Below, piece by piece: positions 18,001 through 24,000 of a stretch of 64,000 nt of DNA; positions within the stretch are counted from its first letter, which is position 1, and the number at the start of each line of letters is the position of its first letter. The position numbers were made by a program. The stretch lies in the NCBI RefSeq assembly GCF_045037415.1, contig NZ_CP173440.1; one strand, 5' to 3'. The stretch comes from Escherichia coli (GTDB taxonomy: Bacteria > Pseudomonadota > Gammaproteobacteria > Enterobacterales > Enterobacteriaceae).

Positions 18001-21000
18001 GTATATGCCTGCCACACGCAAGGATATCGCTGAGGTCGTTCTGGAAGGGAAAATACCGGGGCTACGCTCTCTGGTTGTCTGCCTGGAAGATGCGGTCAGC
18101 GAGCATGACATCCCTCTTGCGATTCAGAATCTTTCACTGTTTTTGAAGCAATTGAGACACGCAAGAGCCGTCAACGATGATGAGAAGTACCCACTGGTAT
18201 TTATCCGCCCACGTCACACTGATATGGGGGGATGGTTAACGACTAATTTGGACCTGAGTGCAGTTGATGGTTTTGTACTGCCCAAATTCACCCTTTCCAC
18301 GCTCCCGGTTTGGTGGGACATCATGGCAGGAACATCATTGATGATGATGCCAACGCTTGAAACCGAAGAAGTCTATGATGTTATTAAAATGCAGGCGCTG
18401 GCAAATGAACTTTCGAGTCATGACTGCCGTGACCGCATAATCGCTTTGCGGATCGGCGGAAACGATCTCATGAACGTCGTGTCTCTGCGACGGCCACGGG
18501 ATCTGACCCTTTATGACACTCCTATGGGTTATGTCATAAAAATGCTTGTGTCAGTATTCGCTCCTCGTGATTTTGCGCTTACCGCACCAGTATGCGAACA
18601 CATCGACGATCACGGCGTTCTGGGACGAGAACTCTCGATGGATATCGCCCATGGGCTGGTGGGTAAAACGGCCATTCATCCTGATCAGATTAGTGTCATA
18701 GAGGAGGCGCTTAAAGTGTCTCCTGGTGAGCATTCAGATGCGTTACGAATTCTGAATTCCACCCAGGCAGTCTTCAAATCTCAGGGAGCGATGTGTGAAC
18801 CGGCCACCCATCGCCGGTGGGCTCAGGGGATCCTGGGACGGGGACAGGTATACGGTCTGACTACGGGGCAAAATCCGGAAGGAATCAGGCTTATTCCAGT
18901 TTCTAAGCAGCACTGAGGAAGCATATATGGGATTCAGATTTCGTAAATCGATCAGCATTATCCCGGGGGTCAGGGTTAACCTGAGTAACGGGGCCCCCAG
19001 TCTGAGTATTGGCCCCCGTGGAGCTTCGCTGTCAGTGGGAAAGAATGGAACGTTTGCCAACCTGGGCCTTCCCGGAACGGGACTGAGTTACCGCACCCGG
19101 ATTGACAGAACAGCACGGGAAAGAGTGAATACCAGGCATCAGGCAGATCCCGGTCTGAGGTCTGAACTGGAGCTGGTGGTGGAAAAACTGATGTCCACCG
19201 TAACAGCGATAACCAATATCCATGAACTCTCCCCTTCCCCAAAGGGAGGGAATACCTGGGCCACGCTCGAGACACAGTACCTGGCGCTCCGTCAGGGCAG
19301 TTTCACTCTTCCTGCGCCGGTACGACCAAACAAACCTGAATATATACCTCTTCCACCAGAACCTGATGAGCATGCCGGTCGCGGTTTCCTTGGGGGATGG
19401 CTTGAATCTGATGCAGCCCGACAGGAGCGACAGAACGAAAATCTTCGGCGGTGGCAGACGTCCGTCGCTGATATTGAACGTGAAAATGCGTTGCTGAAAC
19501 AGCGTTATGAGAAACAGCGTATAGCGTGGGCTGAGCAGTACGCAGAATGGCAGCATCAGTACCAGGAGCATGAAAAAAATCGCACGGAGTCTGTAGCTTT
19601 AGCGAAAGAGCAATTCCGATCTGACGCCCGCTTCTTTGAACATTGTCTTGAGGAAGTTTTCTCGCAAACAGAATGGCCGCGAGAAACACTGGTGTCGTTT
19701 GAGGTACGGCCTGAAGAATCAACAGTCTGGCTTGATGTTGATTTACCTGAGATTGAGGATATGCCTGATAAAGTGTATAGCGTGAATGCCCGGGGAACTG
19801 ATATCAATGAAAAAGCCATGACACAGAAAGCGGTCCGGGAAAGTTACGCTAAACACGTTCACGGATGCCTGCTGAGATTAGCAGCAATCGTTTTTCAGAC
19901 GCTTCCGTTTGAACAGGCCGTCATTTCAGGCTTCACTCAGCGGGTGAGTAAACGCACTGGATATCTTGAAGATGAGTACATTATCTCCTGGCGGGTACGC
20001 CGCTCTGAAATCGAGCTAATCAACTTCGGGAATCTGCGAGGCGTTGACCCTATTGAAGCATTGGGTGATCGAGGTCTGATCAGGAAAATGAGTTCAACTT
20101 ACATTTTTCAGCCTATAGAACCACTGACCCAGATGGCAGGTACCGACTGAATATGCAATTAAACACCAGACAGGAAAGAGTTTACACCCTGGCTAACATA
20201 CTTGGCTCAGGGAAGCCTGTATCGGCGCAATCCATCACCGCGACGCTGGCCTGTTCTGAGCCGACACTAAGCCGGGCGCTTAAAGAGCTGAGGGAAACTT
20301 ACGCTGCTGAAATTAAATACAGTAAGGCTGGCCACTCCTATCAGATGGTACACTCCGGGTTACTGGATAAGAAAACACTAAAGAGAATGAGTGAGGCACT
20401 GGACCTTAATTCTGATTTAAAAACACATGACCAGGGGGCACGGGTGGTACTGGATAAGGATATAAAAACTTCCGTTTCCCTGTCGATAAGACGCCGTGTT
20501 CTTCGCAAAATTGACAAACTGGCTGCGCTAAGCGGTACATCAAGAAGCGAGGCAGTAGAAAAATTAGTAGAGTTAAAAATTGATGAAATTATCAATGAAA
20601 TGAAGAAATAGCAGAATATTAGTGGGGTGGTTGTTCTCACTCCACTAATCGGCAATCTTTACCATTTTCCCAACAGGTGTTTATTGTATAACTACAGATA
20701 AAAAGCAAATTAATAAAATAAAGATTCTTAATTCATAAATAATCCCTGTGTTTTATTTTATTAGTTTTCTTTTAACTGACCATCGTCGCCGTATTATTAA
20801 ATGCAAAAACGTTAAACCATATTTTATATAGATTATGACCTGTCCAGTTTCCCGGCGACGGGTTATCAATATGGCGAATGCCTACTAATAATGGCGGGGA
20901 TCGTATTGTTGAAATATTGAAAATTTGTAATGTTGCTCAACCAACTCGCGCGTTTGAAACAACGTGAAAATCTCACTTTGTGATTGCTGAACTAACTATA

Positions 21001-24000
21001 TGGCTTTTTTTTAGTAGTATGATATGAAGTGTTTATAAAACCATGTTCAGGAAATGAGCTCCCCCATCAACCATTAAGGAAAGTTTAAGATGAGAAGACT
21101 TCCCGTCTATCTGCTTCTCGATACATCAGGTTCAATGCACGGAGAGCCTATAGAGGCAGTTAAAAATGGTGTCCAGACACTACTGACCACCCTGAAGCAG
21201 GATCCTTATGCACTGGAAACTGCATATGTCTCTGTCATTACTTTCGACTCTACTGCTCGTCAGGCCGTACCTCTTACAGATCTCCTCAGTTTCAATCTCC
21301 CCTCTTTTTCGGCAAGCGGAACTACCGCTCTGGGCGAAGCCTTATCCCTGACTGCAAACCGAATTGATGCAGAAGTTCAGAAAACGACAGCGGAGACAAA
21401 AGGCGACTGGCGTCCACTCGTTTTCCTGATGACGGATGGTGGCCCTACGGATGACTGGCGTAAAGGACTTAATGAATTCAAAGCAGCCAAAAAAGGGGTA
21501 GTTGTCGCATGTGCTGCCGGGCATGATGCAGATACGGATGTGCTTAAGGAGATCACCGAGATTGTTCTCCAGCTGGACACTGCCGACAGCTCTTCCATCA
21601 AAGCTTTTTTCAAATGGGTGTCTGCCAGTGTTTCCGTAGGTAGCCAGAAAGTCGATGCCGGTAAAAAAGAAGTTATCGGTCTTGATGATTTGCCTCCACC
21701 GCCGCCAGAAGTAAACGTGGTTTTATAAGCAATTAACTTAAGAGAGGATCCTATGACTGTCAGCTTACGGAAAGGGCAAGGCGTCAGCCTGCGTAAAAAT
21801 GAGTTCGATCTTTCCTCAGTCACGATAGGTCTTGGCTGGGACATCAATGAAGAGAAAAAAGGGTTCCTGGGCGGAATTTTTGGCAAAAAAGAGGAGGAGT
21901 ATGACCTCGATGTTATTGCCTTTCTCTGCAACGCAGCCGGTAAAGTGACTGATCTTGGCAATGTTGAAAATGGTAAGCCGACACTGGTTAACGGCGATAT
22001 CGTCTTCTTCAACAGTCTTCGCCATAAATCAGGGCAGATCTGGTTGACCGGCGATAACCGGACAGGTGCCGGTGACGGAGACGATGAGCAAATTATCGTA
22101 AAACTAAACAGCATCGATCCGAAGTACGAAAAAATTGTCTTTATTGTTCAGATCTACAACGGCGAAAAATTACAGCAGCACTTTGGAAAAGTGCAAAATG
22201 CATTTATCCGGGCGGTAGACGGAAAAAATGTGGAAATGGCACGCTTTGACCTCTCCGGCGGTGTAGCCTTTAATGGTCAGCGATCGATGGTCTTTGCTGA
22301 GCTTGTCCGGGAATCCAGTGGCTGGAAACTGAATGCGATAGGCGAGCCTTCCACCTCCGATTCGTTCGTAAGCCATCTGAGGAACTATATCTAAATGCGA
22401 AGACTACCCGTATATCTGCTCATCGATACTTCCGGCTCAATGAGAGGAGAATCGATACATTCAGTGAATGTGGGTGTGCAGGCTATGCTGAGTGCCCTGA
22501 GACAGGACCCTTATGCGCTTGAAAGCGTCCATATCTCAATAATTACATACGATAATGAAGCCCGGGAGTATGTTCCCCTCACTGCCCTGGCTGACTTTCA
22601 GTTTTCTGATATAGAAGTACCAAGTGCGGGCGGCACCTTTACCGGCGCGGCGCTTGAATGTCTGATCCAGTGTGTCGACCGGGATATTCGCCGCTCTGAT
22701 GGTGAACAGAAAGGCGACTGGAGACCGCTGGTGTTTCTGATGACAGATGGTACTCCGTCAGATGCCTGGGCTTATGGGGAAGCTGTTAAAGAGGTTCAGC
22801 GGCGTTCGTTTGGTTCCATTATAGCCTGTGCTGTTGGCCCTAAAGCGGGACACGAACATCTGAAACTACTGACTGACAAAGTTGTGGCTCTTGAAACACT
22901 GGATTCGACCGCATTTTCAGGCTTTTTCAAATGGGTCAGTGCCAGCGTGGCTTCAGGAAGCTCCAGTGCCGGAGTCACTACTGATTCGGACACACTTCCA
23001 CCGCCACCGCCAGAAATCCAGCTTGTTCTGTAACTTACGCCGGTATGGCAGGGAATAACCCTGCCTTATACCGATAAAGTCCATCTCTGCTATGGACGTC
23101 ACATTTTGCTATGAGGGAGTTTCCTGTGAGACGACTTCCCGTTTTTTTTGTTCTGGACTGTTCTGAGTCCATGATTGGTGAAAACCTGAAAAGGATGAAT
23201 GATGGCTTGCAGAAGATTGTGAGCGATCTGCGTAAGGACCCTCATGCTCTGGAGACTGTCTGGGTGTCAGTAATTGCCTTTGCCGGTATTGCCAGAACGA
23301 TTGTCCCGTTACATGACATTGTGTCTTTTTATCCCCCTCGCCTTCCTGTCGGTGGAGGAACTAACCTCGCGACTGCCTTACGGGAACTGACAACACAAAT
23401 AGATTCTCAGGTCCGAAAAACGACGCTGGAAGAAAAAGGTGACTGGAAGCCAGTTGTCTACTTACTTACTGACGGCCGACCGACAGATGACATTTCAGCT
23501 GAGGTTAAGCGCTGGAACGAATTTTACGCAAAAAAAGTGAATATGATTGCTGTGGGGATCGGACCATCAGTTGATCTCAGTGTACTCAGGCAACTGACTG
23601 AAAACGTCTTATCGTTTACCGAAAATCAGGAAGGCGATTTTTCGCGGTTTATCCAGTGGATCACAGCTTCAGTCACAGCTCACAGTCGTAGTGTTGGCGA
23701 GGATTCTCAGCCGCCCCTGAAACAAACTGACTATATCGTCAAACTTGCCAAAGATGACACAGCCCGTGCATACGATGAAAACTGTGTGGTATTAACCGGG
23801 CGTTGCAGTAAAACCCGTCGACCTTATCTGATTAAGTATGAGCGTCCGCCAGCCAGGGTATCGGGCCTCGCTTTCGATCTAAACCTTAACAGCTTTAACA
23901 TTGCTGGTTGTTATCCTGTGGATGAAGATTACTTCTCATGGACGGATATGTCCGTAGCCGGGGCGCAGATAAACACCAGTGAACTCCATGGCGTACCAGG

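Follow-up and report, generated by a model that had tools for sequence, protein, structure and literature searches.

The tellurite-resistance (ter) cluster considered here lies within a 64,000-nucleotide stretch of Escherichia coli contig NZ_CP173440.1 (assembly GCF_045037415.1), which we refer to as the window. It consists of terF-E-D-C-B-A-Z on the minus strand, a divergent plus-strand module that begins with an ATP-grasp gene and closes with terW, and a second plus-strand module that opens with terY1 (Table 1). Our subject is the gap between terW and terY1, which a preliminary description had singled out as a very AT-rich stretch of about 480 bp, the longest noncoding stretch of the ter region, and a plausible regulatory hub, perhaps with a TerW operator or a promoter. 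The open reading frame (ORF) coordinates place the gap at 20612–21089 (478 bp), exactly the bounds that had been given, and its length exceeds that of the HAD/terF gap (336 bp), the terZ/ATP-grasp gap (304–310 bp), and every other gap in the cluster (≤92 bp). The composition is likewise as described. The guanine-plus-cytosine (GC) content of the gap is 33.9%, against 49.5% for the ter cluster, which puts it within the lowest 2.4% of 478-bp segments across the 64 kb; it falls to 26% in 20660–20850, and 20639–20838 ranks second-lowest in GC among the 200-bp segments. The function proposed for the gap did not hold up as well. With a probability of roughly 0.6, we read it as a composite, largely unconstrained spacer that joins two ter modules, and not as a hub controlled by TerW. 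The observations that carry this reading are the anatomy of the gap, its pattern of conservation, and the absence from it of the TerW operator motif.

The region is common among plasmids. Large IncFIB/IncHI1B plasmids of Klebsiella pneumoniae, pKpvST383L (CP034201.2) among them, match positions 20100–21700 at 100% identity; at ≥90% identity, 993 plasmid records match, 927 of which are Klebsiella. No annotated feature falls inside the gap in ~880 plasmid records. We aligned six variants of this Klebsiella lineage, which are 92–100% identical, and counted the variable columns in each part of the gap and in the two flanking genes (Table 1). The middle of the gap varies in 16% of its columns, compared with 9–10% at the third codon positions of terW and terY1, so that its rate of change equals or exceeds that of synonymous sites. 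In this small sample, both ends of the gap appear somewhat constrained.

Table 1. Features of the ter cluster that bear on the terW–terY1 gap, with the share of variable alignment columns in the Klebsiella lineage
Feature	Position	Strand	Variable columns	Remarks
terF-E-D-C-B-A-Z	ends at 13596	−		
TerW-type palindrome 1	13654–13670	none		AAATCATATCATGACAA; ~58 nt from the terZ start; among the top two matches of 64,000 positions
TerW-type palindrome 2	13810–13826	none		TTATCATATTATGATTG; ~90 nt upstream of the ATP-grasp gene; among the top two matches
ATP-grasp gene, PRTase, hypothetical gene, StiP, C-C lyase, DUF4236, terW	from 13901	+		
terW	20153–20611	+	3.5% (third codon positions 9%)	Closing gene of the ATP-grasp...DUF4236-terW module; from ORF
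Hairpin part of gap	20612–20655		7%	
Stem-loop	20618–20649	+		ATTAGTGGGGTG-N8-CACTCCACTAAT; starts 7 nt past the terW stop codon
AT-rich spacer (~290 bp)	20656–20944	none	16% (11-bp indel included)	31% GC; lineage-specific, fast-evolving
Imperfect AT-rich inverted repeat	20701–20773	none		22-nt arms, 29-nt loop
Conserved terY1-proximal block (last 145 bp)	20945–21089	+	6%	Invariant 44-nt run at 20959–21002; putative promoter and/or 5′ untranslated region of the terY1 operon
Weak −10-like box TATGAT	21018–21023	+		No good −35
Weak −10-like box TATAAA	21034–21039	+		No good −35
Shine-Dalgarno AAGGA	21076–21080	+		
terY1 (VWA domain)	21090–21728	+	3.6% (third codon positions 10%)	Opens the terY1-terX-terY2-terY3-PP2C-kinase module; from ORF and domain matches
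terY1, terX (TerD domain), terY2, terY3, PP2C phosphatase, kinase	downstream of terW	+		

The stem-loop that follows terW has a 12-bp stem and a predicted folding energy of −18.8 kcal/mol (z = −3.4); when it is scored as a DNA inverted repeat, it is unexceptional. It is kept, with G-U-preserving changes, in E. coli plasmid pExPEC1 (L002 in our collection of loci) and in loci L085 and L086, all three with unrelated DNA downstream, and L085 carries it after terW with no terY at all. Because it is present where the DNA downstream is unrelated or terY is absent, we assign the stem-loop to terW as a 3′-end element. A hairpin is found at the equivalent place after terW in most other lineages, and in the IncHI2/O104:H4 and Proteus types it is followed by a U-tract, making a classic terminator. 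The element in the window shares with intrinsic terminators a stable stem-loop directly after the gene and lacks their U-tract. It probably represents the 3′ end of the terW transcript, where it would act as a terminator or as a stabilizer.

The middle of the gap is a single-copy sequence tied to the ter locus. Positions 20650–20950 match 883 places in 882 plasmids, once per plasmid, and all inspected matches are in ter loci; a search of phages with the gap middle returned no match. A mobile or repeated element, such as a miniature inverted-repeat transposable element (MITE) or an insertion sequence (IS) remnant, was rejected on these grounds. The several short inverted repeats that had been attributed to the gap are borne out only in part. 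We counted 5 repeats with a score ≥8, compared with 1.6 ± 1.5 expected (p ∼0.045), and the excess stems mainly from the hairpin after terW, which folds notably, and from the repeat with arms at 20701–20722 and 20752–20773; the others are near chance. The arms of this 22-nt repeat are complementary at 20 of 22 positions, a result that beats 300 of 300 dinucleotide shuffles and 300 of 300 block shuffles. As read from the alignment, the complementarity drops from 20/22 to 17–19/22 in the lineage variants, and no compensatory changes are found among them. The repeat is probably a relic and not a maintained structure.

The gap has also been broken more than once. In pCRKP-33_Vir (L093, NZ_CP102636.1, 2501–3273), IS1A is inserted at the equivalent of ~20709 and the terY module is lost, and in E. 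coli O157:H7 (L005, 3520–4437) an IS66 element lies 260 nt after terW. The terW–terY gap is a recurrent breakpoint and site of rearrangement. Its AT content is far above that of the flanks (26–34% GC vs 49.5%), as is typical of H-NS-type composition; the H-NS motif TCGATAAATT has no match in the gap at ≤2 mismatches, and we found no paper in the open-access literature linking H-NS with terY. Judged by composition, the gap middle would be the kind of DNA favored by H-NS-like nucleoid proteins and by insertion sequences.

We gathered 77 TerW-encoding loci from different species and extracted their terZ/ATP-grasp and terW–terY gaps. In most of the sampled genomes, no terY1 is seen after terW, and since the terY module is missing from this position in many genomes, the two modules are separable units. 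Where terY1 does follow, the gap ranges from 157 to 559 bp (1262 and 2482 bp with insertions) and from 20 to 56% GC. Among these gaps there are at least six families with no alignment between them, and the Klebsiella type, to which the window belongs, aligns with none of the others. L002 is a case in point: although its TerW and TerY1 are 94% and 98% identical to those of the window, its gap (2013–3274) is 1262 bp long, and likeness to the window is confined to the first ∼38 nt, which hold the hairpin, and the last ∼115 nt before terY1. Apart from the hairpin and, in L002, the last ∼115 nt, no homology of the gap to other ter lineages was found. The alternative gap of the L002 type is also present in a metagenome contig (L086, 3457–3675). 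In L002, the annotation places within it a hypothetical ORF of 64 aa, read from the minus strand (2275–2469).

The TerW protein of the window is 68% identical to E. coli TerW, and the identical protein carries the TerW annotation in CP034201.2; no NCBIfam hidden Markov model covers TerW. Its N-terminus is winged helix-turn-helix-like, with a weak match to HVO_A0261_N (PF25213) over residues 20–84, and its C-terminus (residues 108–144) matches the ribbon-helix-helix family RHH_1 (PF01402), which together suggest two potential DNA-binding modules. Kravchenko et al. (2021; PMC7843439, supplement file 9) put forward a palindrome around AATCATATnATGATT as a candidate operator of TerW. According to that paper, the candidate coincides with the TerW-protected region of Valkovicova et al. 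(2011, Biologia 66:565), which it cites for TerW binding at the terZ promoter region. It places two sites in the region that separates terZ from the divergent operon and a “weak” site before terY1 in Pectobacterium, and it is the only open-access paper that we found to address the terW–terY gap.

We searched for this operator with two matrices. The first, a 25-mer built from eight published sites (PMC7843439), has its two best matches over the 64 kb in the terZ gap, with starts at 13806 (score 26.0) and 13650 (22.7), and finds nothing above 5.2 inside 20612–21089. The third-best match, at 44088–44112 (TTGATAATCCTGATATGAATAAATT, 17.9), lies inside an ORF of the resistance region (43331–44146) and is probably due to chance. 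The second matrix is a 17-mer derived from 31 distinct operator-type palindromes of terZ/ATP-grasp gaps and scored against an AT-rich background. Its best score in 20612–21089 is 0.4, compared with 13.6–23.8 for the training sites, and 34% of shuffled sequences do equally well (p ∼0.34). The sole operator-like stretch in the gap, the degenerate AGTATGATATGAA at 21016–21028, scores −2.9 with the 17-mer, and position 21017 within it varies (G, C, or A) among the Klebsiella-lineage variants. Moderate operator sites are present in 2 of 26 terW–terY gaps, at differing positions (L023, score 10.8 at −36; L047, score 12.9 at −243). A TerW operator in the gap was rejected with both matrices, and the 26 gaps show no positional conservation of such a site.

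The terZ/ATP-grasp gap is of a different kind. It measures 302–324 bp in all of the ∼55 species in which it can be delimited, and each carries two ATCATAnnATGAT palindromes, one ∼58 nt from terZ and one ∼90 nt before the ATP-grasp gene. Palindromes fixed in this way in ∼55 Enterobacterales species lend strong comparative support to the candidate TerW operator, and because terW closes one of the two divergent operons that flank them, they support autoregulation of terW as well. A comparison of 20612–21089 with 13597–13900, which the preliminary description had proposed, disclosed no shared motif beyond chance: the longest common word is 9 nt, a length equaled in 91 of 100 shuffles, and no 16-mer likeness exceeds chance. 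The idea of a TerW operator and regulatory hub beside terW is thus not supported, the motif being missing and the gap unconserved in length, composition, and sequence across lineages. On comparative evidence, the predicted regulatory hub of the cluster is 13597–13900, between terZ and the ATP-grasp gene, and not 20612–21089.

The suggestion that the gap contains a promoter fared better: the last 145 bp vary so little that they plausibly contribute to the expression of terY1, but no sigma-70 site rises above chance. Most likely, the last ∼145 bp hold a weak or activator-dependent promoter for terY1, the location being the one that we predict. Other lineages are more explicit. A promoter-like block, TTGACA-N15-TGAGATAAC(G/A)ACC, lies 60–75 nt upstream of terY1 in L012, L014, L021, L023, L028, and L032; it is common to Buttiauxella, Edaphovirga, Erwinia, Pectobacterium, and Serratia, where it is followed by a ATTATGAT half-site, and the Klebsiella, IncHI2, and Proteus types lack it. 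De novo motif discovery in the terY-proximal 170 nt of 19 lineages recovered nothing beyond the Shine-Dalgarno region and, in one subset, the TTGAGATAAC promoter, to which the best match in the window, CTGAACTAACTATATG, is weak. Inspection by eye turned up a perfect PhoP half-site, TGTTTA, at 20678–20683, the second half of which is poor, and a CRP half-site, TGTGA, at 20979–20983, about −61 relative to the start predicted from the TATAAA box, with 1 of 5 positions matching in the right half. The sigma-54, sigma-E, PhoP-box, and CRP-like matches found in this manner are too weak to claim. One may go further and speculate that the promoter in 20945–21089 needs an activator or an alternative sigma factor and that the gap is swapped as a unit among ter clusters that are otherwise almost identical, so that in the Klebsiella-plasmid lineage expression of the terY-PP2C-kinase module is rewired independently of TerW; we consider this rather improbable.

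From these results, we propose a division of labor within the gap and outside it. The stem-loop would mark the 3′ end of the ATP-grasp...terW unit, as a weak terminator or a 3′-end stabilizer; the ∼290 bp that follow would be lineage-specific AT-rich DNA with no detectable sequence-specific function; and terY1 would be served by the last ∼145 bp, which carry a Shine-Dalgarno sequence and probably also a promoter, either weak or dependent on an activator. The most likely targets of TerW are the two ATCATAnnATGAT palindromes of the terZ/ATP-grasp gap; from there it would govern the divergent terZABCDEF operon as well as the biosynthetic operon, terW included, and it probably has no action on terY1 in the Klebsiella lineage. 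Several points count against the spacer reading. There is no U-rich tract after the stem-loop, the next sequence being CGGCAAUCUUUACC, and a terminator scan of 20100–21600 found 0 terminator-like sites. A consensus sigma-70 scan of the gap gave 3 sites, compared with 3.1 ± 1.5 in shuffled sequences, and the best plus-strand score with a rough sigma-70 matrix is 6.8, compared with a shuffle best of 9.2 ± 1.5 and equaled in 96% of shuffles; these null results are compatible with a weak or activator-dependent promoter. In addition, the 22-nt inverted repeat is statistically real yet lacks an explanation, the conservation profile is based on just six variants, and the TerW operator motif is itself a published prediction; TerW might also recognize something else.

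The missing terminator and promoter signals are what one would expect if transcription simply read through. On that explanation, ATP-grasp...terW and terY1...kinase would form one operon, and the 478 bp would be an internal spacer, transcribed but untranslated, with no separate promoter; the stem-loop would then act in RNA processing or stability, and the role of the conserved 3′ block would lie in initiating the translation of terY1. The one-operon drawing of the 14 ter genes in K. pneumoniae by Vornhagen et al. (2021; PMC8115787), made without transcript mapping, agrees with it, as does the lack of any plus-strand promoter-like site above chance. We nevertheless find read-through doubtful, though possible. 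Classic terminators after terW and strong, separate terY promoters are present in other lineages, many genomes have no terY module behind terW, and the 145-bp conserved block exceeds what a ribosome-binding site needs. Moreover, RNA-seq in Pectobacterium showed that the terY operon and terW respond differently to inactivation of phoP (PMC7843439); as the terY operon does not follow terW there, terY1 starts its own transcription unit in that genus.

Control of terY by a TerW operator in the gap, as originally envisaged, strikes us as unlikely. The gap adjoins terW, Pectobacterium has a third, weak TerW-like site before terY1 in the list of Kravchenko et al. (2021), and AGTATGATATGAA matches 10 of 13 operator-core positions within the conserved block. 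These points are offset by matrix scores far below those of real sites, both for AGTATGATATGAA and for the gap as a whole, by the variability of 21017, by the scarcity of even moderate sites in the other terW–terY gaps, and by the lack of a motif in common with the terZ gap. Least probable of all is a hidden functional RNA or small protein, whether a small RNA (sRNA), a riboswitch-like leader, or a micro-ORF, which we regard as very unlikely. The gap is long for an intergenic region, one of its inverted repeats is beyond chance, and it contains a 29-aa ORF that begins with ATG (20878–20967) and, on the minus strand, another of 38 aa. However, the longest ORFs within 20656–20944 are ≤38 aa, they lie in the fastest-evolving part, and no ribosome-binding site is visible. 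No Rfam 15 covariance model matches either strand of 12500–22500 at E ≤ 1, the inverted repeat decays without compensation, and the sequence is missing from all other ter lineages. A riboswitch-like leader in particular was set aside because the folding scores are unremarkable (z = −1.44 for the whole gap and −0.09 for the 3′ 216 nt). The spacer joining two modules is the explanation that we retain.

At the far end of the terY operon, the Ser/Thr kinase gene (25927–27427) has an extra T at ∼26811 relative to CP034201.2 (GGTTCTC vs GGTCTC), which splits it into ORFs 25927–26907 and 26639–27427. The insertion is one of three 1-nt indels relative to CP034201.2 across 30 kb, and it is either a frameshift or a sequencing error.

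The gap is therefore real and correctly located, and it is an ordinary junction between a terW-ending module and a terY module. Hundreds of sequenced plasmids carry its sequence, and it is a familiar kind of element. It is of little importance in itself and opens no new question; its value lies in the correction. Those interested in how TerW controls the Klebsiella ter locus, which is widespread in the clinic, should look at the palindromes at 13654–13670 and 13810–13826 and not at the gap beside terW, and the terY-PP2C-kinase module is best treated as a separable unit with a lineage-dependent upstream region in which IS insertions and losses of the module recur. Since the ter locus has been linked to K. 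pneumoniae infection and to gut fitness (PMC8115787), a knowledge of its real promoter regions would help in designing experiments.

The gap can be set beside several known arrangements. Within the cluster, the terZ/ATP-grasp gap is also AT-rich (35% GC) and, like the terW–terY gap, was a candidate TerW target, but it is conserved in length and carries two palindromes, whereas the terW–terY gap is variable and has none. The gap of the IncHI2 (R478-like)/E. coli O104:H4 type, like that of the window, lies between orthologous genes and is of nearly equal length (462–471 bp), but its sequence is unrelated, its GC content is 41–45%, and it has a classic terminator with a U-tract. Gaps of this type (L003, L004, L010, and L041) can be aligned over their full length among four genera, and the identity over the whole length is 68–75% among E. 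coli, Lelliottia, and Citrobacter; they may, in contrast to the Klebsiella type, be constrained throughout. The gaps of Pectobacterium, Serratia, Erwinia, and Buttiauxella occupy the same position as that of the window, with a terW hairpin followed by expression signals for terY1. They measure 157–343 bp and share an extended −10 promoter, whereas the Klebsiella gap does not align with any of them and lacks such a promoter, as it lacks the weak TerW-like site that Pectobacterium has at −36. Finally, the replacement of intergenic regions between conserved genes, reportedly described by Oren and colleagues in PNAS in 2014 as “horizontal regulatory switching”, resembles the relation of the window to L002, in which near-identical flanking genes enclose a wholly different gap. 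The breakpoints in this pair fall right after the terW hairpin and ∼115 nt before terY1, and the swap may reflect no more than an independent joining of the two modules, or insertion and deletion.

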